From the sequence record NC_054914.1: a DNA stretch of 64,000 nt; one strand, given 5' to 3'. The translations under genes were made by a program, and so were the position numbers. The notes under the pieces are model-generated. The model searched no databases. It was not told where the DNA came from and saw nothing but the letters and a program-made list of their open reading frames with translations. Below, piece after piece: positions 19,445 through 45,471 of this stretch. Source of the stretch: Escherichia phage vB_EcoM-fFiEco06. The number at the start of each line of letters is the position of its first letter. Position 1 is the first letter of the stretch.

Positions 19445-19702
19445 TTATTTTAAAACTTCTGCATAATCACATGTTACAAACTGTTTCTCTAACTTGGCGA
19501 TTTTACGAAAGTATCTTTTGCATTGACGAATCTGTCGCTTTGTAGGGCGCACAGCAAACTTAATAAATTCCACTCGACCAAATGGAGGGCTTTCTTCTGC
19601 CGGAATATCTAATACTAATTCCCACGTATCTGCAATAAGTGCTTTGAATTGAGTATTTTTCCTGACATTATACGGAGTAGGTTTAAATAAAACGATATGC
19701 AT
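19445..19702 (-). CDS. hypothetical basic protein
   Basis: internal ATG at 19702 has GAGGA Shine-Dalgarno and sits 1 nt after upstream stop; track start 19744. Confidence 0.5.
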   Translation of the reverse strand: MHIVLFKPTPYNVRKNTQFKALIADTWELVLDIPAEESPPFGRVEFIKFAVRPTKRQIRQCKRYFRKIAKLEKQFVTCDYAEVLK

Positions 19703-41464: not shown

Positions 41465-41935
41465 TTAATCATGTGTCCACACCCCATCGGTATTTGACCA
41501 AAGCCGCTGATTATCTGATCCTCTCCACAGCTTTTTGGTCGGAAGATTTTTCTCATACTTCCCATCAATAATAACATCAACATATTTAAGCATTTCTAGT
41601 TGTTTAATATCTTCAAACTTATATCCTGTCCACAACCAAATGCTTTTATTTGGATAAAGATTTTTTACTGTTTGAACAATGCAATGAATAACATCTCGAT
41701 TATCAGGATAGAGAGGGTCTCCTCCAGTTATAGTTAATCCTTCTATATAATCATTATTCAAACATTCAATTAATTGTTCTAGTGTTTCACCAGTGAATGG
41801 AATACCATTTCTAGCATTCCATGTTGATTTATTATAACACCCTTCGCATTTATGCAAACAACCTGTAACGAAAAGAACGACCCTGCAACCAGGGCCATTC
41901 ACAAAATCGCAAGGATAAAATCTATCATAATTCAT
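41465..41935 (-). CDS. nrdG: anaerobic ribonucleotide reductase activating protein (radical SAM)
   Basis: 156 aa; CxxxCxxC cluster in GCLHKCEGCYN. Confidence 0.85.
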   Translation of the reverse strand: MNYDRFYPCDFVNGPGCRVVLFVTGCLHKCEGCYNKSTWNARNGIPFTGETLEQLIECLNNDYIEGLTITGGDPLYPDNRDVIHCIVQTVKNLYPNKSIWLWTGYKFEDIKQLEMLKYVDVIIDGKYEKNLPTKKLWRGSDNQRLWSNTDGVWTHD

Positions 41936-43749
41936 TGATGCTTAACCCTATGCATGATTTCTTTATTTTTGCCGAGATTAAATCCGCGTTCGTTCGGATT
42001 TCCCAAATAACCACATGTTCTTCTTATTGTATTCATCTTTTTAGGATCAGTTTCTCCACAAATAGAACAAACAAATCCGTTTTCAGTAGGAGTCATTTCA
42101 TGGGTACTTCTGCATGTAAAACATTTATCCACTGGCATATTAACACCAAAATAATCTAAATGTTGTGCAGCATAATCCCATACGGCCTCAAGACCTTTCA
42201 AGTTATTTTTCATATCAGGAAGTTCAACATAAGAAATGTGACCACCTGTCGCAATGAAATGATATGGCGCTTCACGAGAAATCTTTTCAAACGGAGTAAT
42301 ATTTTCTTCTACTGAGACATGGAAACTGTTAGTGTACCAGCCTTTATCGGTAACATCTTTTACGCTTCCATATTTTTCTGTATCGAGTTTACAGAAGCGA
42401 TAACAAAGGTTTTCAGCAGGAGTCGAATATAAACTAAAAGCAAATCCGGTTCTTTCAGTCCACTGTTTAAGATGAGCATTCATTTTAGTTAAAATTTCTC
42501 GTCCAATATCACGACCGACAAGAATATTCAATTCGTGAATACCAATGTATCCTAAAGACACTGAACTTCTACCGTTTTTAAATAACTCAATTATATCGTC
42601 ATCAGGTTTAAGACGAACCCCAAATGCACCTTCTTGGTAAAGAATAGGAGCAACAGTAGCTTTAACTCCTTTTAAGGAACTAATTCTACACATCAAAGCT
42701 TCAAAACATAAATCCATTCGTTCATTGAACAATTCAACAAATTTCTGTTCATTGAACTGTGTTCCAATATAAGAATCTAACGCGATGCGAGGAAGATTCA
42801 GTGTTACAACACCAAGATTATTACGTCCATCAAGAATTTCATTACCAGTCGAATCTTTCCATACGCCCAAGAAACTACGGCAACCCATTGGAGAAACAGG
42901 AACAGATGAACCAGTGATAGCTTTATTGTTCTTAGCTGAAATAATATCAGGATACATCCTTTTGCTTGCACACTCTAGAGCAAGCTGCTTAATATCATAG
43001 TTCGGATCGTCTTTATAAAGATTAACACCTTCTTCAACGAACATAACAAGCTTAGGGAAAATAGGAGTTATTCCATCACGACCAAGACCTTTAATACGAT
43101 TTTTCAGAATTGCTTTCTGAATCATTCGTTCAGTCCAGTCAGTTCCTGTACCAAATGTAATTGTTACAAAAGGTGTTTGTCCGTTTGAACTAAAGAGAGT
43201 ATTTACTTCATATTCATAAGCTTGGAATGCATCGTATACATCTTTTTCTGTTTTAGATTGAGCATAATTCAACGCATCAGCGATTTGCCATTTTTCTGCA
43301 TCCTCAATATGTTTTGCATAGGTGCGTTTAACATAAGGAGAAAGTACTTTATCGACATTAGCAAATGTAGTTCCGCCATATTGGTGAGAAGCAACCTGTG
43401 CAGTAATTTGTGCCATAATTGCAGTAGCAACACCGATTGATTTAGGAGTTTCAATCTGTGCATTACCAAGCTTAAATCCGTTCTCAAGCATTCCTTTTAA
43501 ATCTACTAAACAACAATTAGTAAATGGAAGAGCAGGGGAATAATCAATATCGTGGAAATGGATAATTCCGCTTTCATGCGCTTTCATAATAAAAGACGGG
43601 ACCATATTTTTGGCAATGTGTTTAGACACAATACCAGCCATAAGGTCCCGTTGAGTTGGAAAAACACGAGAATCTTTATTAGCATTCTCGTTTAAAAGGT
43701 CTTTATTAGTTTTATGAATCAATCCTTCAATTTCTTTTTCAATTGTCAT
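41932..43749 (-). CDS. nrdD: anaerobic ribonucleoside-triphosphate reductase, uninterrupted
   Basis: 605 aa; C-terminal glycyl radical motif RTCGYLG and CxxC zinc site; single continuous ORF. Confidence 0.9.
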   Translation of the reverse strand: MTIEKEIEGLIHKTNKDLLNENANKDSRVFPTQRDLMAGIVSKHIAKNMVPSFIMKAHESGIIHFHDIDYSPALPFTNCCLVDLKGMLENGFKLGNAQIETPKSIGVATAIMAQITAQVASHQYGGTTFANVDKVLSPYVKRTYAKHIEDAEKWQIADALNYAQSKTEKDVYDAFQAYEYEVNTLFSSNGQTPFVTITFGTGTDWTERMIQKAILKNRIKGLGRDGITPIFPKLVMFVEEGVNLYKDDPNYDIKQLALECASKRMYPDIISAKNNKAITGSSVPVSPMGCRSFLGVWKDSTGNEILDGRNNLGVVTLNLPRIALDSYIGTQFNEQKFVELFNERMDLCFEALMCRISSLKGVKATVAPILYQEGAFGVRLKPDDDIIELFKNGRSSVSLGYIGIHELNILVGRDIGREILTKMNAHLKQWTERTGFAFSLYSTPAENLCYRFCKLDTEKYGSVKDVTDKGWYTNSFHVSVEENITPFEKISREAPYHFIATGGHISYVELPDMKNNLKGLEAVWDYAAQHLDYFGVNMPVDKCFTCRSTHEMTPTENGFVCSICGETDPKKMNTIRRTCGYLGNPNERGFNLGKNKEIMHRVKHQ

Positions 43750-44219
43750 TTTAAACTCTTTCTAAGCTGCTTCTTAAATGAAGCTATTAACTGTGTTTTG
43801 GTGTCAGATTCATTATATTCAAATCCTCTTTGAAGCATCTCGGCCATCATTTCCTCTTTTCCTAAACGAGAAAATTCCTTTGATTTATCTCCAACAAAGT
43901 TAGGGTGAATATTATTTTGGGTGTAATCGGATTTTAAATAAGTAAGTAAATTTTCTAACCATTCAAGATAATCAACACCTTGTCCCTTTAAGCCAGAACG
44001 ATTAAATTTATGCTTCATTTGACCTTCTGCAGCATTGCAGAGATTACAAAGCAATCCACGTATCTTTCCTGCTTTTGGTCCATTTAATTCATGGTCATGG
44101 TCGAGGTGATTAGCTTGAACATCAGGATTTAGTTCTCGTTGGCAAATTAAGCATTTACCGTTTTGTGCATTATAAAATTTTTGTTTTTCTTCTTTGTATA
44201 ATTTGCCAGTCAATAACAT
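43746..44219 (-). CDS. 49: endonuclease VII (Holliday junction resolvase)
   Basis: 157 aa; recalled as T4 gp49. Confidence 0.9.
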   Translation of the reverse strand: MLLTGKLYKEEKQKFYNAQNGKCLICQRELNPDVQANHLDHDHELNGPKAGKIRGLLCNLCNAAEGQMKHKFNRSGLKGQGVDYLEWLENLLTYLKSDYTQNNIHPNFVGDKSKEFSRLGKEEMMAEMLQRGFEYNESDTKTQLIASFKKQLRKSLK

Positions 44220-44260
44220 AATAAAACCCTTACCTTAAATAGATAAGGGTATTTATTATT

Positions 44261-44306
44261 TTTAAGTATTGTAAAACATTCGATGCAATCGTTTATACTG
44301 TCGAAT
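44261..44306. repeat. direct repeat copy A (about 45 bp)
   Basis: aagtattgtaaaacattcgatgcaatcgtttatactgtcgaatc; 4 mismatches to copy B at 44476..44521. Confidence 0.8.
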
Positions 44307-44438
44307 CATCTTTTTAGTAGGACGAGAATAGGTTCCTACGCAAGTGGTCATATGAGGGTCCGTAGAATGTCCTTTAATAAAAAGTTTCCAAACCTTACCG
44401 CCATTTAACTTTTCAGTATAAACCAATTCGGTTTTCAT
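44262..44438 (-). CDS. small ORF sharing its C-terminal 14 residues with the pin-like protein
   Basis: 58 aa ORF not in track; ends IRQYKRLHRMFYNT, encoded by repeat copy A. Confidence 0.4.
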   Translation of the reverse strand: MKTELVYTEKLNGGKVWKLFIKGHSTDPHMTTCVGTYSRPTKKMIRQYKRLHRMFYNT

Positions 44439-44474
44439 TAAAATGTCCTGTCAGAAAAAGAATTTTGAGTTTTT

Positions 44475-44960
44475 TCAAGTATTGTAAAACATTTGATGCA
44501 ATCGCTTATATTGCCGAATCTTTTGGTCAGAAAAAGAAATTTGAGTTTCAAGCCATTCAATGTACTCTGCGGCAGCTTGCATCAGGTTACCTTCATAGCC
44601 ATCGTTATTTTCTTGCGCAGCTAATTTAGCTAATGCGTATGAAATACGTTCACCTTGAAAAGCGGCTTTAGGCTTCTGAACATCTTGGCTAGTTCTCTCT
44701 ACAACTTCTTCAATTTCGCCATTTTCAACGGATTCAGTATTCCACAAACACCAGTATGTAATTGGCTTATCATAGATGTTAATAATCTTTCCGTCGGAAA
44801 GTTCAATTTCAATAATTCCAGTATCAGGTTCTATATCATCTTCGCATTCTTTTGCAAGTTCACGAACTTTAAAGACAGTACCTGCACTAAGTTCCGGCCA
44901 GTAATTACATAGCCCTGTATCAACACGATTAATTCTAAACCACTTATCTACTGTAATCAT
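44475..44960 (-). CDS. pin: Pin-like protein (candidate protease inhibitor)
   Basis: ATG at 44960 gives 161 aa; track start 44978 is TTG; symbol by size and position after gene 49. Confidence 0.5.
   Translation of the reverse strand: MITVDKWFRINRVDTGLCNYWPELSAGTVFKVRELAKECEDDIEPDTGIIEIELSDGKIINIYDKPITYWCLWNTESVENGEIEEVVERTSQDVQKPKAAFQGERISYALAKLAAQENNDGYEGNLMQAAAEYIEWLETQISFSDQKIRQYKRLHQMFYNT
44476..44521. repeat. direct repeat copy B
   Basis: aagtattgtaaaacatttgatgcaatcgcttatattgccgaatc; encodes C-terminus of the pin-like ORF. Confidence 0.8.
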
Positions 44961-45111
44961 GTCCCATCTCCATATCAATTAAGTCATTTATCGTTGGTTC
45001 ATTATATACTGTTTCTTCATCAGTGTAAACCGGTTCTTCCGGCTCTGGCTCTACAGTTTCCCATCTAGCCGCCCACCAAGGTTTAACCCCGAAGCTTATT
45101 AAGTTCTTCAT
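44944..45111 (-). CDS. small acidic hypothetical protein
   Basis: 55 aa ORF not in track; overlaps neighbours. Confidence 0.3.
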   Translation of the reverse strand: MKNLISFGVKPWWAARWETVEPEPEEPVYTDEETVYNEPTINDLIDMEMGHDYSR

Positions 45112-45253
45112 AATCAATCCAGGATTCTAATCCTGATGGCAAATCAGATTCAATTTCCCAAAGAAGCTCTTCAATTTTCTGAAGACGATCTAGTTCTTCG
45201 GCTGGAATAGTAACCATTGACGGAGCTCGTGATACATTAATATCGTAAATCAT
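45083..45253 (-). CDS. small acidic hypothetical protein
   Basis: 56 aa ORF not in track; start 2 nt after upstream stop. Confidence 0.35.
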   Translation of the reverse strand: MIYDINVSRAPSMVTIPAEELDRLQKIEELLWEIESDLPSGLESWIDYEELNKLRG

Positions 45254-45255
45254 AT

Positions 45256-45471
45256 TTACCCCAATTTAACCATACAATCGCCGTATTTCCACTTAGAAAT
45301 AGACTTTTCACCATTAGAATAATAAACTTCGAGTTTAGCACGATTATTTTTAATTTGAATAACCTTGGCTGTCATCAAAGTTCCATACCCATAATAAACT
45401 GCAACTTCATCACCTACATATACCGCGCTTCCGCGGTAATCATGAATATAGTCAGTTCCTTCAAGCATCAT
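45256..45471 (-). CDS. hypothetical protein
   Basis: 71 aa ORF; ATGA overlap with nrdC. Confidence 0.5.
   Translation of the reverse strand: MMLEGTDYIHDYRGSAVYVGDEVAVYYGYGTLMTAKVIQIKNNRAKLEVYYSNGEKSISKWKYGDCMVKLG

Follow-up and report, generated by a model that had tools for sequence, protein, structure and literature searches.

The Pin protein of bacteriophage T4 (PinA, P07068) binds and inhibits the Lon protease of Escherichia coli (Hilliard et al. 1998, cited in PMC8835725), and the work on Lon, as described in the passages on PinA in PMC8835725, used the protein of 161 amino acids (aa). An orthologous pin gene is present in Escherichia phage vB_EcoM-fFiEco06 (NC_054914.1), from which a stretch of 64,000 nucleotides (nt), called the window below, was analysed. 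Both proteins have 161 aa, the same core, the same genomic place, the same C-terminal tail and the same junction between core and tail, but the junction dipeptide is QK in the window and RM in T4. The pin core of the window is about 94% identical to T4 pin at the DNA level, with Lon inhibition shown for the T4 protein only. In T4, pin directly precedes gene 49, whereas in the window a short relic and a whole gene of the DUF7279 family, a 58-aa open reading frame (ORF), are interposed. The 3' ends of pin and of this small gene form a direct repeat of 45 base pairs (bp). The repeat very probably consists of the native 3' end of the DUF7279 gene and a captured copy of it that forms the C-terminus of Pin, and it would have arisen through a gene fusion that was followed by the re-acquisition of the small gene.

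The surroundings of the repeat are those of a T-even phage. Between 43700 and 45300 (1.6 kb), the window is 100% identical, at equal coordinates, to Escherichia phage vB_EcoM-fHoEco02 (MG781191.1), a Tequatrovirus; Tequatroviruses are close relatives of T4. The genes of the locus are all on the minus strand and are transcribed in the order 49.1-like gene, pin, 58-aa ORF, gene 49, nrdD. The position between gene 49.1 and gene 49, which is conserved for pin in T-even phages, is also that of the window gene.

A repeat search of the window returned a direct repeat of 63 nt at 44245-44307 and 44458-44520 (83% identity, spacing 213). In its in-register coding core (44262-44306 vs 44475-44519), 40 of 45 bases are equal, including an identical block of 17 nt, and both ORFs translate it as IRQYKRLH(R/Q)MFYNT followed by a stop. 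It is the sole pair in the window with at least 38 of 45 matches at any offset from 45 to 500 nt; the best pairs in 30 first-order Markov shuffles had 28-31 matches, and the repeat is far beyond chance. The preliminary description of this DNA, made from its letters alone, had noticed the repeat and its coding of the last 14 residues plus stop of the 161-aa pin gene and the 58-aa ORF, and both points hold. It placed the copies at 44261..44306 and 44476..44521 with four differences. Four differences do fall within the 14 codons, but a fifth is located in the stop codon (TAA vs TGA), and the second interval is about 2 nt off register. A second direct repeat, D2 (44450-44472 and 44526-44548, 23 nt, 96% identity, spacing 76), was absent from that description and is the key to the history of the locus. 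Along the minus strand, the order is D2b, tail B, D2a, the body of the small ORF and tail A. The elements concerned are the following:

44262..44306, minus strand: repeat copy A, the 3' end of the DUF7279 gene in its native place (14 codons plus TAA; IRQYKRLHRMFYNT, stop)
44475..44519, minus strand: repeat copy B, very probably a captured DUF7279 tail, the last 14 codons plus TGA of Pin (IRQYKRLHQMFYNT, stop)
44475..44960, minus strand: pin, 161 aa from ATG, an Inhibitor_I24 core (1 to about 146) plus the tail
44520-44525, minus strand: pin junction codons Q146 K147
44526..44548, minus strand: D2b, codons for (E)TQISFSD within pin, at the end of the Pin core; its other copy is D2a in the relic
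44473..44474, minus strand: the newly formed joint, within the A-run that separates the pin stop from the relic
44438..44472, minus strand: relic of an unfused pin 3' end, 35 nt, non-coding, including D2a (44450-44472)
44262..44438, minus strand: the 58-aa ORF, an intact DUF7279-family gene (RB69 ORF087c / RB32 ORF078c / JS98 orf76 family)

The small gene can be considered the owner of the tail because profiles, outgroups and paralogues agree on this point. The 58-aa ORF matches the Pfam profile DUF7279 (PF23945) with 62.7 bits (cut-off 24.5, E 3e-17), residues 7-56 covering profile positions 1-53 of 53, and it matches phrog_3272 over positions 1-58 of 59 (E 3e-34). No similarity to Pin is seen in its residues 1-43, the whole ORF has no match to the Pin family in Pfam or PHROGs, and tblastn with the Pin core at these loci returns pin alone. 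The ORF ends with the family-conserved C-terminus RPTKKMIRQYKRLHR.FY. A word search at the sequence level for DUF7279 homologues gave 10 clusters, too few for a tree of the family. In a 10-sequence alignment of the family, the tail residues I45, R46, K49, R50, H52, R53 and F55 are invariant. Among the homologues of the small ORF, RB69 ORF087c, JS98 orf76 and VR5_076 end with ...RPTKKMIRQ(Y/F)KR(L/F)HR.FY..., so the tail is found in DUF7279 homologues of three genera. A second gene of the family is also present in the window. It is the homologue of T4 gp61.4 (19445-19702, minus strand, 85 aa), located between dmd and sp, with matches to PF23945 (E 2e-20) and phrog_2375, and it carries the same segment, RPTKRQIRQCKRYFR (RPTK-x-IRQ-x-KR). 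The basic and aromatic C-terminal pattern RPTK-x-IR-x-x-KR-x-HR-x-F is invariant in the 10-sequence alignment and is common to the 58-aa ORF, the gp61.4 homologue and a further form, DUF7279-b. By this homology, T4 gp61.4 is a member of the family to which the donor of the Pin tail would belong.

Purifying selection acts on the small gene, and most strongly on its tail. Across eight phages, the pairwise ratio of nonsynonymous to synonymous differences per site (pN/pS) of the 58-aa ORF is 0.07-0.5 overall, with 0.19-0.51 over residues 1-43 and 0-0.29 over the tail. Between genera, the tail shows a pS of 0.45 to about 1 and a pN of 0.06-0.2. By these measures, the 58-aa ORF is a real and intact gene in which the tail is under the strongest constraint. 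Its product is very basic (net charge about +9). Structure prediction with AlphaFold2 gave a best model with a mean predicted local distance difference test (pLDDT) score of 81.8, the other four models reaching 52-67. The predicted fold consists of strands at 2-9, 15-22 and 31-37 and a helix at 42-56, and thus the tail forms the only predicted helix. A Foldseek search of the PDB with this model returned nothing significant (best E 0.27, fragments of Dicer and others resembling a double-stranded RNA-binding domain), and the only convincing match in BFVD was the homologue of phage S16. A literature search by terms found no mention of DUF7279 or PF23945, and "ORF087c" matched only an unrelated gene of Aeh1. 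The 58-aa ORF has the same position just upstream of gene 49 as other members of the family and is not distinguished from them.

Pin itself is composed of a core and a tail of different affinities. The core matches PF10465 (Inhibitor_I24) over residues 4-141 with 160.8 bits (cut-off 27, E 2e-47) and phrog_2167, "inhibitor of host Lon protease", over residues 1-146 (E 9e-66), while residues 147-161 separately match positions 44-58 of phrog_3272 (E 0.0098). The Pin-related proteins of RB69, JS98 and VR5 are tailless and end with ...LERRLS, ...RFSDEAF and ...RFSDKAF, respectively. Among close relatives of T4 there are also 148-aa Pin proteins that terminate in ...FSDRAF, to which the ends of distant Pin proteins (FSDKAF, FSDEAF, FSSKSF, FSDRGF) are homologous, and in dozens of T4-like loci a tailless pin lies immediately upstream of gene 49. 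In all pin tails, Gln replaces the Arg53 that is invariant in DUF7279, and some tails also alter His52 or Arg46. This suggests, on small numbers, that constraint on the tail is altered or relaxed within Pin.

Other rearrangements of Pin were observed. In Dhakavirus the gene is split and its halves are swapped: in JS98 (locus L004, 1715-2190), orf78 (57 aa) corresponds to the C-terminal helical part of Pin, residues about 102-146, and the next gene, orf77 (100 aa), to the N-terminal beta part, residues about 6-79. VR5 (locus L008, 1209-1382) retains the C-terminal part alone. Pin appears, from such comparisons, to be built of separable modules. In addition, a 142-aa protein of a contig from the European Nucleotide Archive (ENA), P0030, matches Pin over its first 83 residues or so and Peptidase_S24 (PF00717) over the rest; this is another chimera or else a product of misassembly.

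Among the relatives of the window phage, three layouts of the locus are found. Their counts come from junction-specific searches of a phage collection of 50,697 records:

Type I, about 140 records (Sa45lw, NiC89, Sso113, ZCEC14): a 148-aa pin ending ...WLETQ(K/N/I)SFSDRAF, with its TAA overlapping the small-gene ATG (TAATG), then gene 49
Type II, 114 records (the window, L012, Pinarejo, F1, APTC-EC-2A, SHFML-26, PYps35T, OMNI12): a 161-aa tailed pin, a short A-run, the 35-nt relic and the complete small gene
Type III, about 251 records (T4, T2, loci L009-L011 and L013): a 161-aa tailed pin directly upstream of gene 49, without the small gene

The junction of core to tail was matched at full length in 365 records, and the type II joint in 114 of them, which leaves about 251 for type III. 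A further 140 records or so match only the Pin-core half of the junction and therefore have an unfused pin. The small-gene block occurs in 246 records, which correspond to types I and II plus some Dhakavirus. The protein clusters likewise contain two length classes of Pin, 161 aa and 148 aa, with 83-99% identity in the core. OMNI12, for which two matching places were listed, has no tandem small genes at the locus and is an ordinary type II phage.

Comparison of types I and III allows the fusion to be reconstructed exactly. The DNA of T4 reads ...CTGACCGA/ATGATTC..., where the slash marks the junction, and Sa45lw, NiC89 and Sso113 of type I read ...CTGACCGA, then 137 nt, then ATGATTC.... In a longer view, the T4 sequence ...TTTCTTTTTCTGACCGA/ATGATTCAGCAATATAAG... 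corresponds to type I ...TTTCTTTTTCTGACCGA, followed by GCGTTTTA plus 43 codons, followed by ATGATTCGGCAGTATAAG.... Removal of exactly 137 bp converts the type I layout into that of T4 and shifts the pin frame into the frame of the small gene, so that the fused product is Pin(1-145) plus Met44-Thr58 of the small protein. The dipeptide at the junction is RM in T4, QM in the Pin proteins P0012-P0015 and in APTC-EC-2A, and QK in the window. Since these junctions are of equal length and their codons (CGA ATG, CAA ATG, CAA AAG) are linked by single-base changes, they fit one fusion event that was followed by point mutation.

The origin of the type II layout can be read from the relic. In its old frame, the relic ends with ...(E)KTQNSFSDRTF and a stop, and the TAATG overlap of this stop with the small-gene start is retained. 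Its counterpart is the 3' end of the unfused ZCEC14 pin (...AACTCAAAATTCTTTTTCTGACAGGGCATTTTAATG), and the correspondence is exact in the type II phage F1. In the window, the relic and the N-terminal part of the small gene have 163 of 166 bases in common with ZCEC14. At the Arg codon that precedes the old stop, ZCEC14 has AGG and all sampled relics have AGG or AAG, whereas the fused junction derives from a CGA/CAA form. These codon lineages point to D2 copies that, within one genome, are of different ancestry, which favours recombination of a fused phage with a ZCEC14-like phage as the most likely origin of type II. Because all eight sampled type II genomes have one joint, type II would have arisen once. 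The A-run at the joint is 5, 6 or 7 nt long among these genomes, and the relic occurs in the variants AGGACA, AGGGCA and AAGGCA, all of them purine-rich 8 nt before the ATG. The leader of the small gene is unstructured (z +0.9). All of this fits the idea that the relic supplies a putative Shine-Dalgarno sequence, AGGA, 8 nt upstream of the small-gene ATG after the loss of stop/start coupling. Pin, with its borrowed tail, and the small protein are probably both expressed.

The history that we favour consists of three steps. In the ancestral state, as a comparison of living genomes shows, a 148-aa pin ending ...WLETQ(I/N/K)SFSDRAF overlapped the small-gene start with its stop (TAATG). An illegitimate deletion of 137 bp would then have removed the last 8 nt of pin together with the first 43 codons of the small gene. 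Its product would be the 161-aa Pin of T4 and T2 (...SFSDR/MIQQYKRLHQMFYNT), in frame with the last 15 codons of the small gene, from which the QM and QK forms would derive by point changes. Finally, a phage with the fused pin may have recombined with an unfused, ZCEC14-like phage through two crossovers. The first, illegitimate, would have joined the A-run past the stop (TGA) of the fused pin to the last 35 nt or so of the donor pin, and the second, homologous, would lie in or beyond gene 49. The result would be the observed series of pin with tail, relic, small gene and gene 49. The 45-bp repeat would then be a side effect of these events, and it might serve as substrate for a 213-bp deletion that restores the T4 layout.

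Several observations weigh against this history. Flanking markers are shuffled among the types: QK, QM and H/N haplotypes of the pin tail are found in both type II and type III, as are the GGGTTT and GGGTTTT variants. Homologous recombination has therefore blurred the history, and the order of fusion and re-acquisition is unproven. The breakpoints of the type II joint are unreadable because the length of the A-run varies. T4 lacks the small gene at this locus. Moreover, the AlphaFold2 model of Pin is poor (pLDDT 65, below 50 in the tail) and uninformative about the role of the tail in Pin.

The alternative that survives best reverses the order of events and is unlikely, though it deserves some weight. 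It proposes that the block of pin 3' end and small gene was tandemly duplicated in an unfused genome, that the 137-bp deletion took place in the first copy, and that type III was formed later by recombination between the 45-bp repeats with loss of 213 bp. The repeats are directly oriented and contain the identical 17-nt block, and types II and III have pin-tail haplotypes and flanking markers in common; for instance, F1 (type II) and L009 (type III) agree in GGGTTTT, in the Asn tail variant and in having ACC as a codon of D2b. Nevertheless, this order requires three events rather than two, and the difference between the relic (AGG/AAG) and the junction (CGA/CAA) would call for a further replacement after an intragenomic duplication. 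In addition, the pin copy has retained its Gln codon and TGA stop in each of the six type III genomes sampled, whereas copy A is followed by TAA in seven type II genomes out of the eight sampled (by TGA in Pinarejo), so that a crossover in the longest identical block would usually have given TAA. None of the fetched loci showed two full tandem small genes.

It is very improbable that the 45 nt are kept twice as a cis-acting nucleic-acid element, for the control of gene 49, RNA processing or recombination, rather than for their protein coding. The neighbouring features are the following:

44944-45111, minus strand: 49.1-like gene
44221..44259, minus strand: gene 49 control hairpin, starting just past the stop of copy A, with the late-promoter-like box AATAAATA (44250-44257) in its 5' arm
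43746..44219, minus strand: gene 49, encoding endonuclease VII, which anchors the locus downstream
41932-43749, minus strand: nrdD, an uninterrupted 605-codon ORF

Copy A does adjoin the conserved hairpin and its late-promoter-like box. RNA folding of the hairpin gave -18.2 kcal/mol (z -4.1), with pairing of the gene 49 Shine-Dalgarno sequence and of bases beside the AUG, and a terminator-like match lies at 44250-44226. The hairpin is kept in T4, RB69 and JS98, and the box reads TATAAATA in RB69. It keeps gene 49 untranslated on early transcripts, according to a passage in PMC2988022 that cites Barth et al. 1988. However, the hairpin lies wholly downstream of the stop codon, copy B is not adjacent to gene 49, and neither copy is needed where a tailless pin directly precedes gene 49. 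The divergence between genera points the same way, as synonymous sites of the tail change freely and the peptide is kept. Every deletion and insertion described at the locus spares the hairpin, and the rearrangements probably end at the stop codon of the small gene because the hairpin must stay intact.

The reading given in the preliminary description, in which the 3' end of pin is the duplicated piece and the 58-aa ORF a truncated decoy or remnant of a second pin copy, has hardly any probability left. Nothing speaks for it except that the two ORFs are neighbours with a common tail of 14 residues. Against it, the first 43 residues are unlike Pin, the ORF is a complete DUF7279 and phrog_3272 member under purifying selection, and profiles and outgroups identify the small gene as donor and pin as recipient. 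A comparison with related genomes had been proposed as the check for a deletion remnant, and in RB69, JS98, VR5 and about 140 Tequatroviruses the tailed orthologues adjoin tailless Pin genes. In a general sense, its wording of a partial duplication or recombination scar stands, with illegitimate deletion plus recombination as the source, but the specific duplication of pin does not. The artefact of assembly or sequencing named there as a refutation, a collapsed or mis-joined repeat, is a generic possibility of negligible probability, given the identical architecture, with the same full-length junction, in 114 independently sequenced and deposited genomes from different hosts and countries with their own polymorphisms in A-run (5-7) and relic.

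The rest of the region shows further peculiarities. Sites resembling sigma-70 promoters are not enriched relative to shuffles (7 vs 6.3), and for this reason no promoter is assigned to the small gene. The best such site (45001-45029, minus strand; TTTACA, 17 nt, TATAAT, 11/12) falls within the 49.1-like gene, some 40 nt before the start of pin, and could serve pin and the small gene as an early promoter. The nrdD gene of the window is the intron-less allele, whereas that of T4 is split by a group I intron carrying I-TevII. Between pin and nrdC, a 56-aa ORF (45083-45253, minus strand) matches phrog_3402, "antitoxin from a toxin-antitoxin system" (E 3e-40), and its N-terminus is weakly similar to T7 gp5.9, a RecBCD inhibitor (PF25708, E 6e-4, below the cut-off; phrog_6234, E 1e-3). 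The interval from pin to nrdC (44944-45471) differs from that of T4 (locus L003, 2008-2773), as this ORF and a 71-aa DUF7205 ORF replace 49.2 (106 aa) and 49.3 (102 aa). The pin-nrdC region is hyperplastic among close relatives.

Fusions of Pin with DUF7279 sequences are not limited to the T4 type. An RB69-like contig from a metagenome, L056, carries a pin immediately before gene 49, and its product has 141 aa and ends with ...YLERR/FHRDFYNVY. The sequence ACGTTT occurs in RB69 both at the end of pin and inside ORF087c, and all that lies between these two copies is missing from the contig. To judge from these breakpoints, this is an independent fusion of Pin to a tail, mediated by a microhomology of 6 nt, in which the N-terminal part of the small gene is gone. 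RB69-like phages also have a second, divergent DUF7279 paralogue (MQVKLLYR...) upstream of pin (locus L022, 1695-2268), so that pin is bracketed by two DUF7279 genes; RB69 ORF089c as annotated (locus L005, 2141-2257) is only the C-terminal part of this paralogue. In two independent ENA metagenome assemblies (L057 and L058, 1501-2076), the paralogue is fused to Pin in full and in frame, giving a protein of 191 aa (P0037). Pin and DUF7279 have thus been fused at least three separate times: with a tail of 15 residues in the T4 type, with one of 9 residues in the RB69 type and as a full DUF7279-b::Pin protein.

Such recurrence hints at functional partnership, through a common target or a complex, as do the adjacency of pin and a DUF7279 gene in at least three genera, the translational coupling by TAATG and the bracketing of pin in RB69-like phages. 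That DUF7279 proteins are partners of Pin, and that the borrowed helix is not neutral, remains doubtful, and we would lend it little credence at present. If it were true, the basic aromatic C-terminal helix could be a docking element, for example for Lon or nucleic acid, and the biochemistry of T4 PinA would have been performed on a chimera whose last 15 residues aid binding. Even so, the repeated fusions offer an initial, weak clue to function in an uncharacterised family, of which T4 gp61.4 is a member.

The value of these results is chiefly corrective. T4 PinA would be a chimera of an Inhibitor_I24 core and 15 residues of DUF7279, and about 140 close relatives make a tailless Pin of 148 aa. 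For this reason, residues 147-161 should be treated separately in the mapping of the Pin-Lon interface and in models of the Pin family. A foreign origin of the last 15 residues of T4 PinA is not mentioned in the literature found under the names of the small-gene family, or in the passages of PMC8835725 on PinA. The APTC-EC-2A record (locus L061, 763-939) labels its small DUF7279 gene "host protease inhibitor". This label is wrong and apparently due to the common tail, and it is a mis-annotation that can be transferred to other records.

Viewed more broadly, the locus provides a natural series, unfused, fused, and fused with re-acquisition, for illegitimate deletion and re-acquisition in T-even phages. 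In T4, illegitimate deletions occur at short or absent homologies, and the hyperplastic regions of T-even phages undergo modular gene shuffling. The pin locus has in common with other plastic regions of these phages the in-frame fusion by a small deletion, the presence or absence of a small early-region gene as a polymorphism, and mosaic flanking markers. Unlike other cases of T-even plasticity, it involves no homing endonuclease, no promoter-stem-loop cassette and no other mobile element, and it has left a lasting chimera of a protein that has been studied biochemically. It is a new documented example of a known T-even process, a fusion made by deletion and then modular recombination, and it is of modest, specialist interest.

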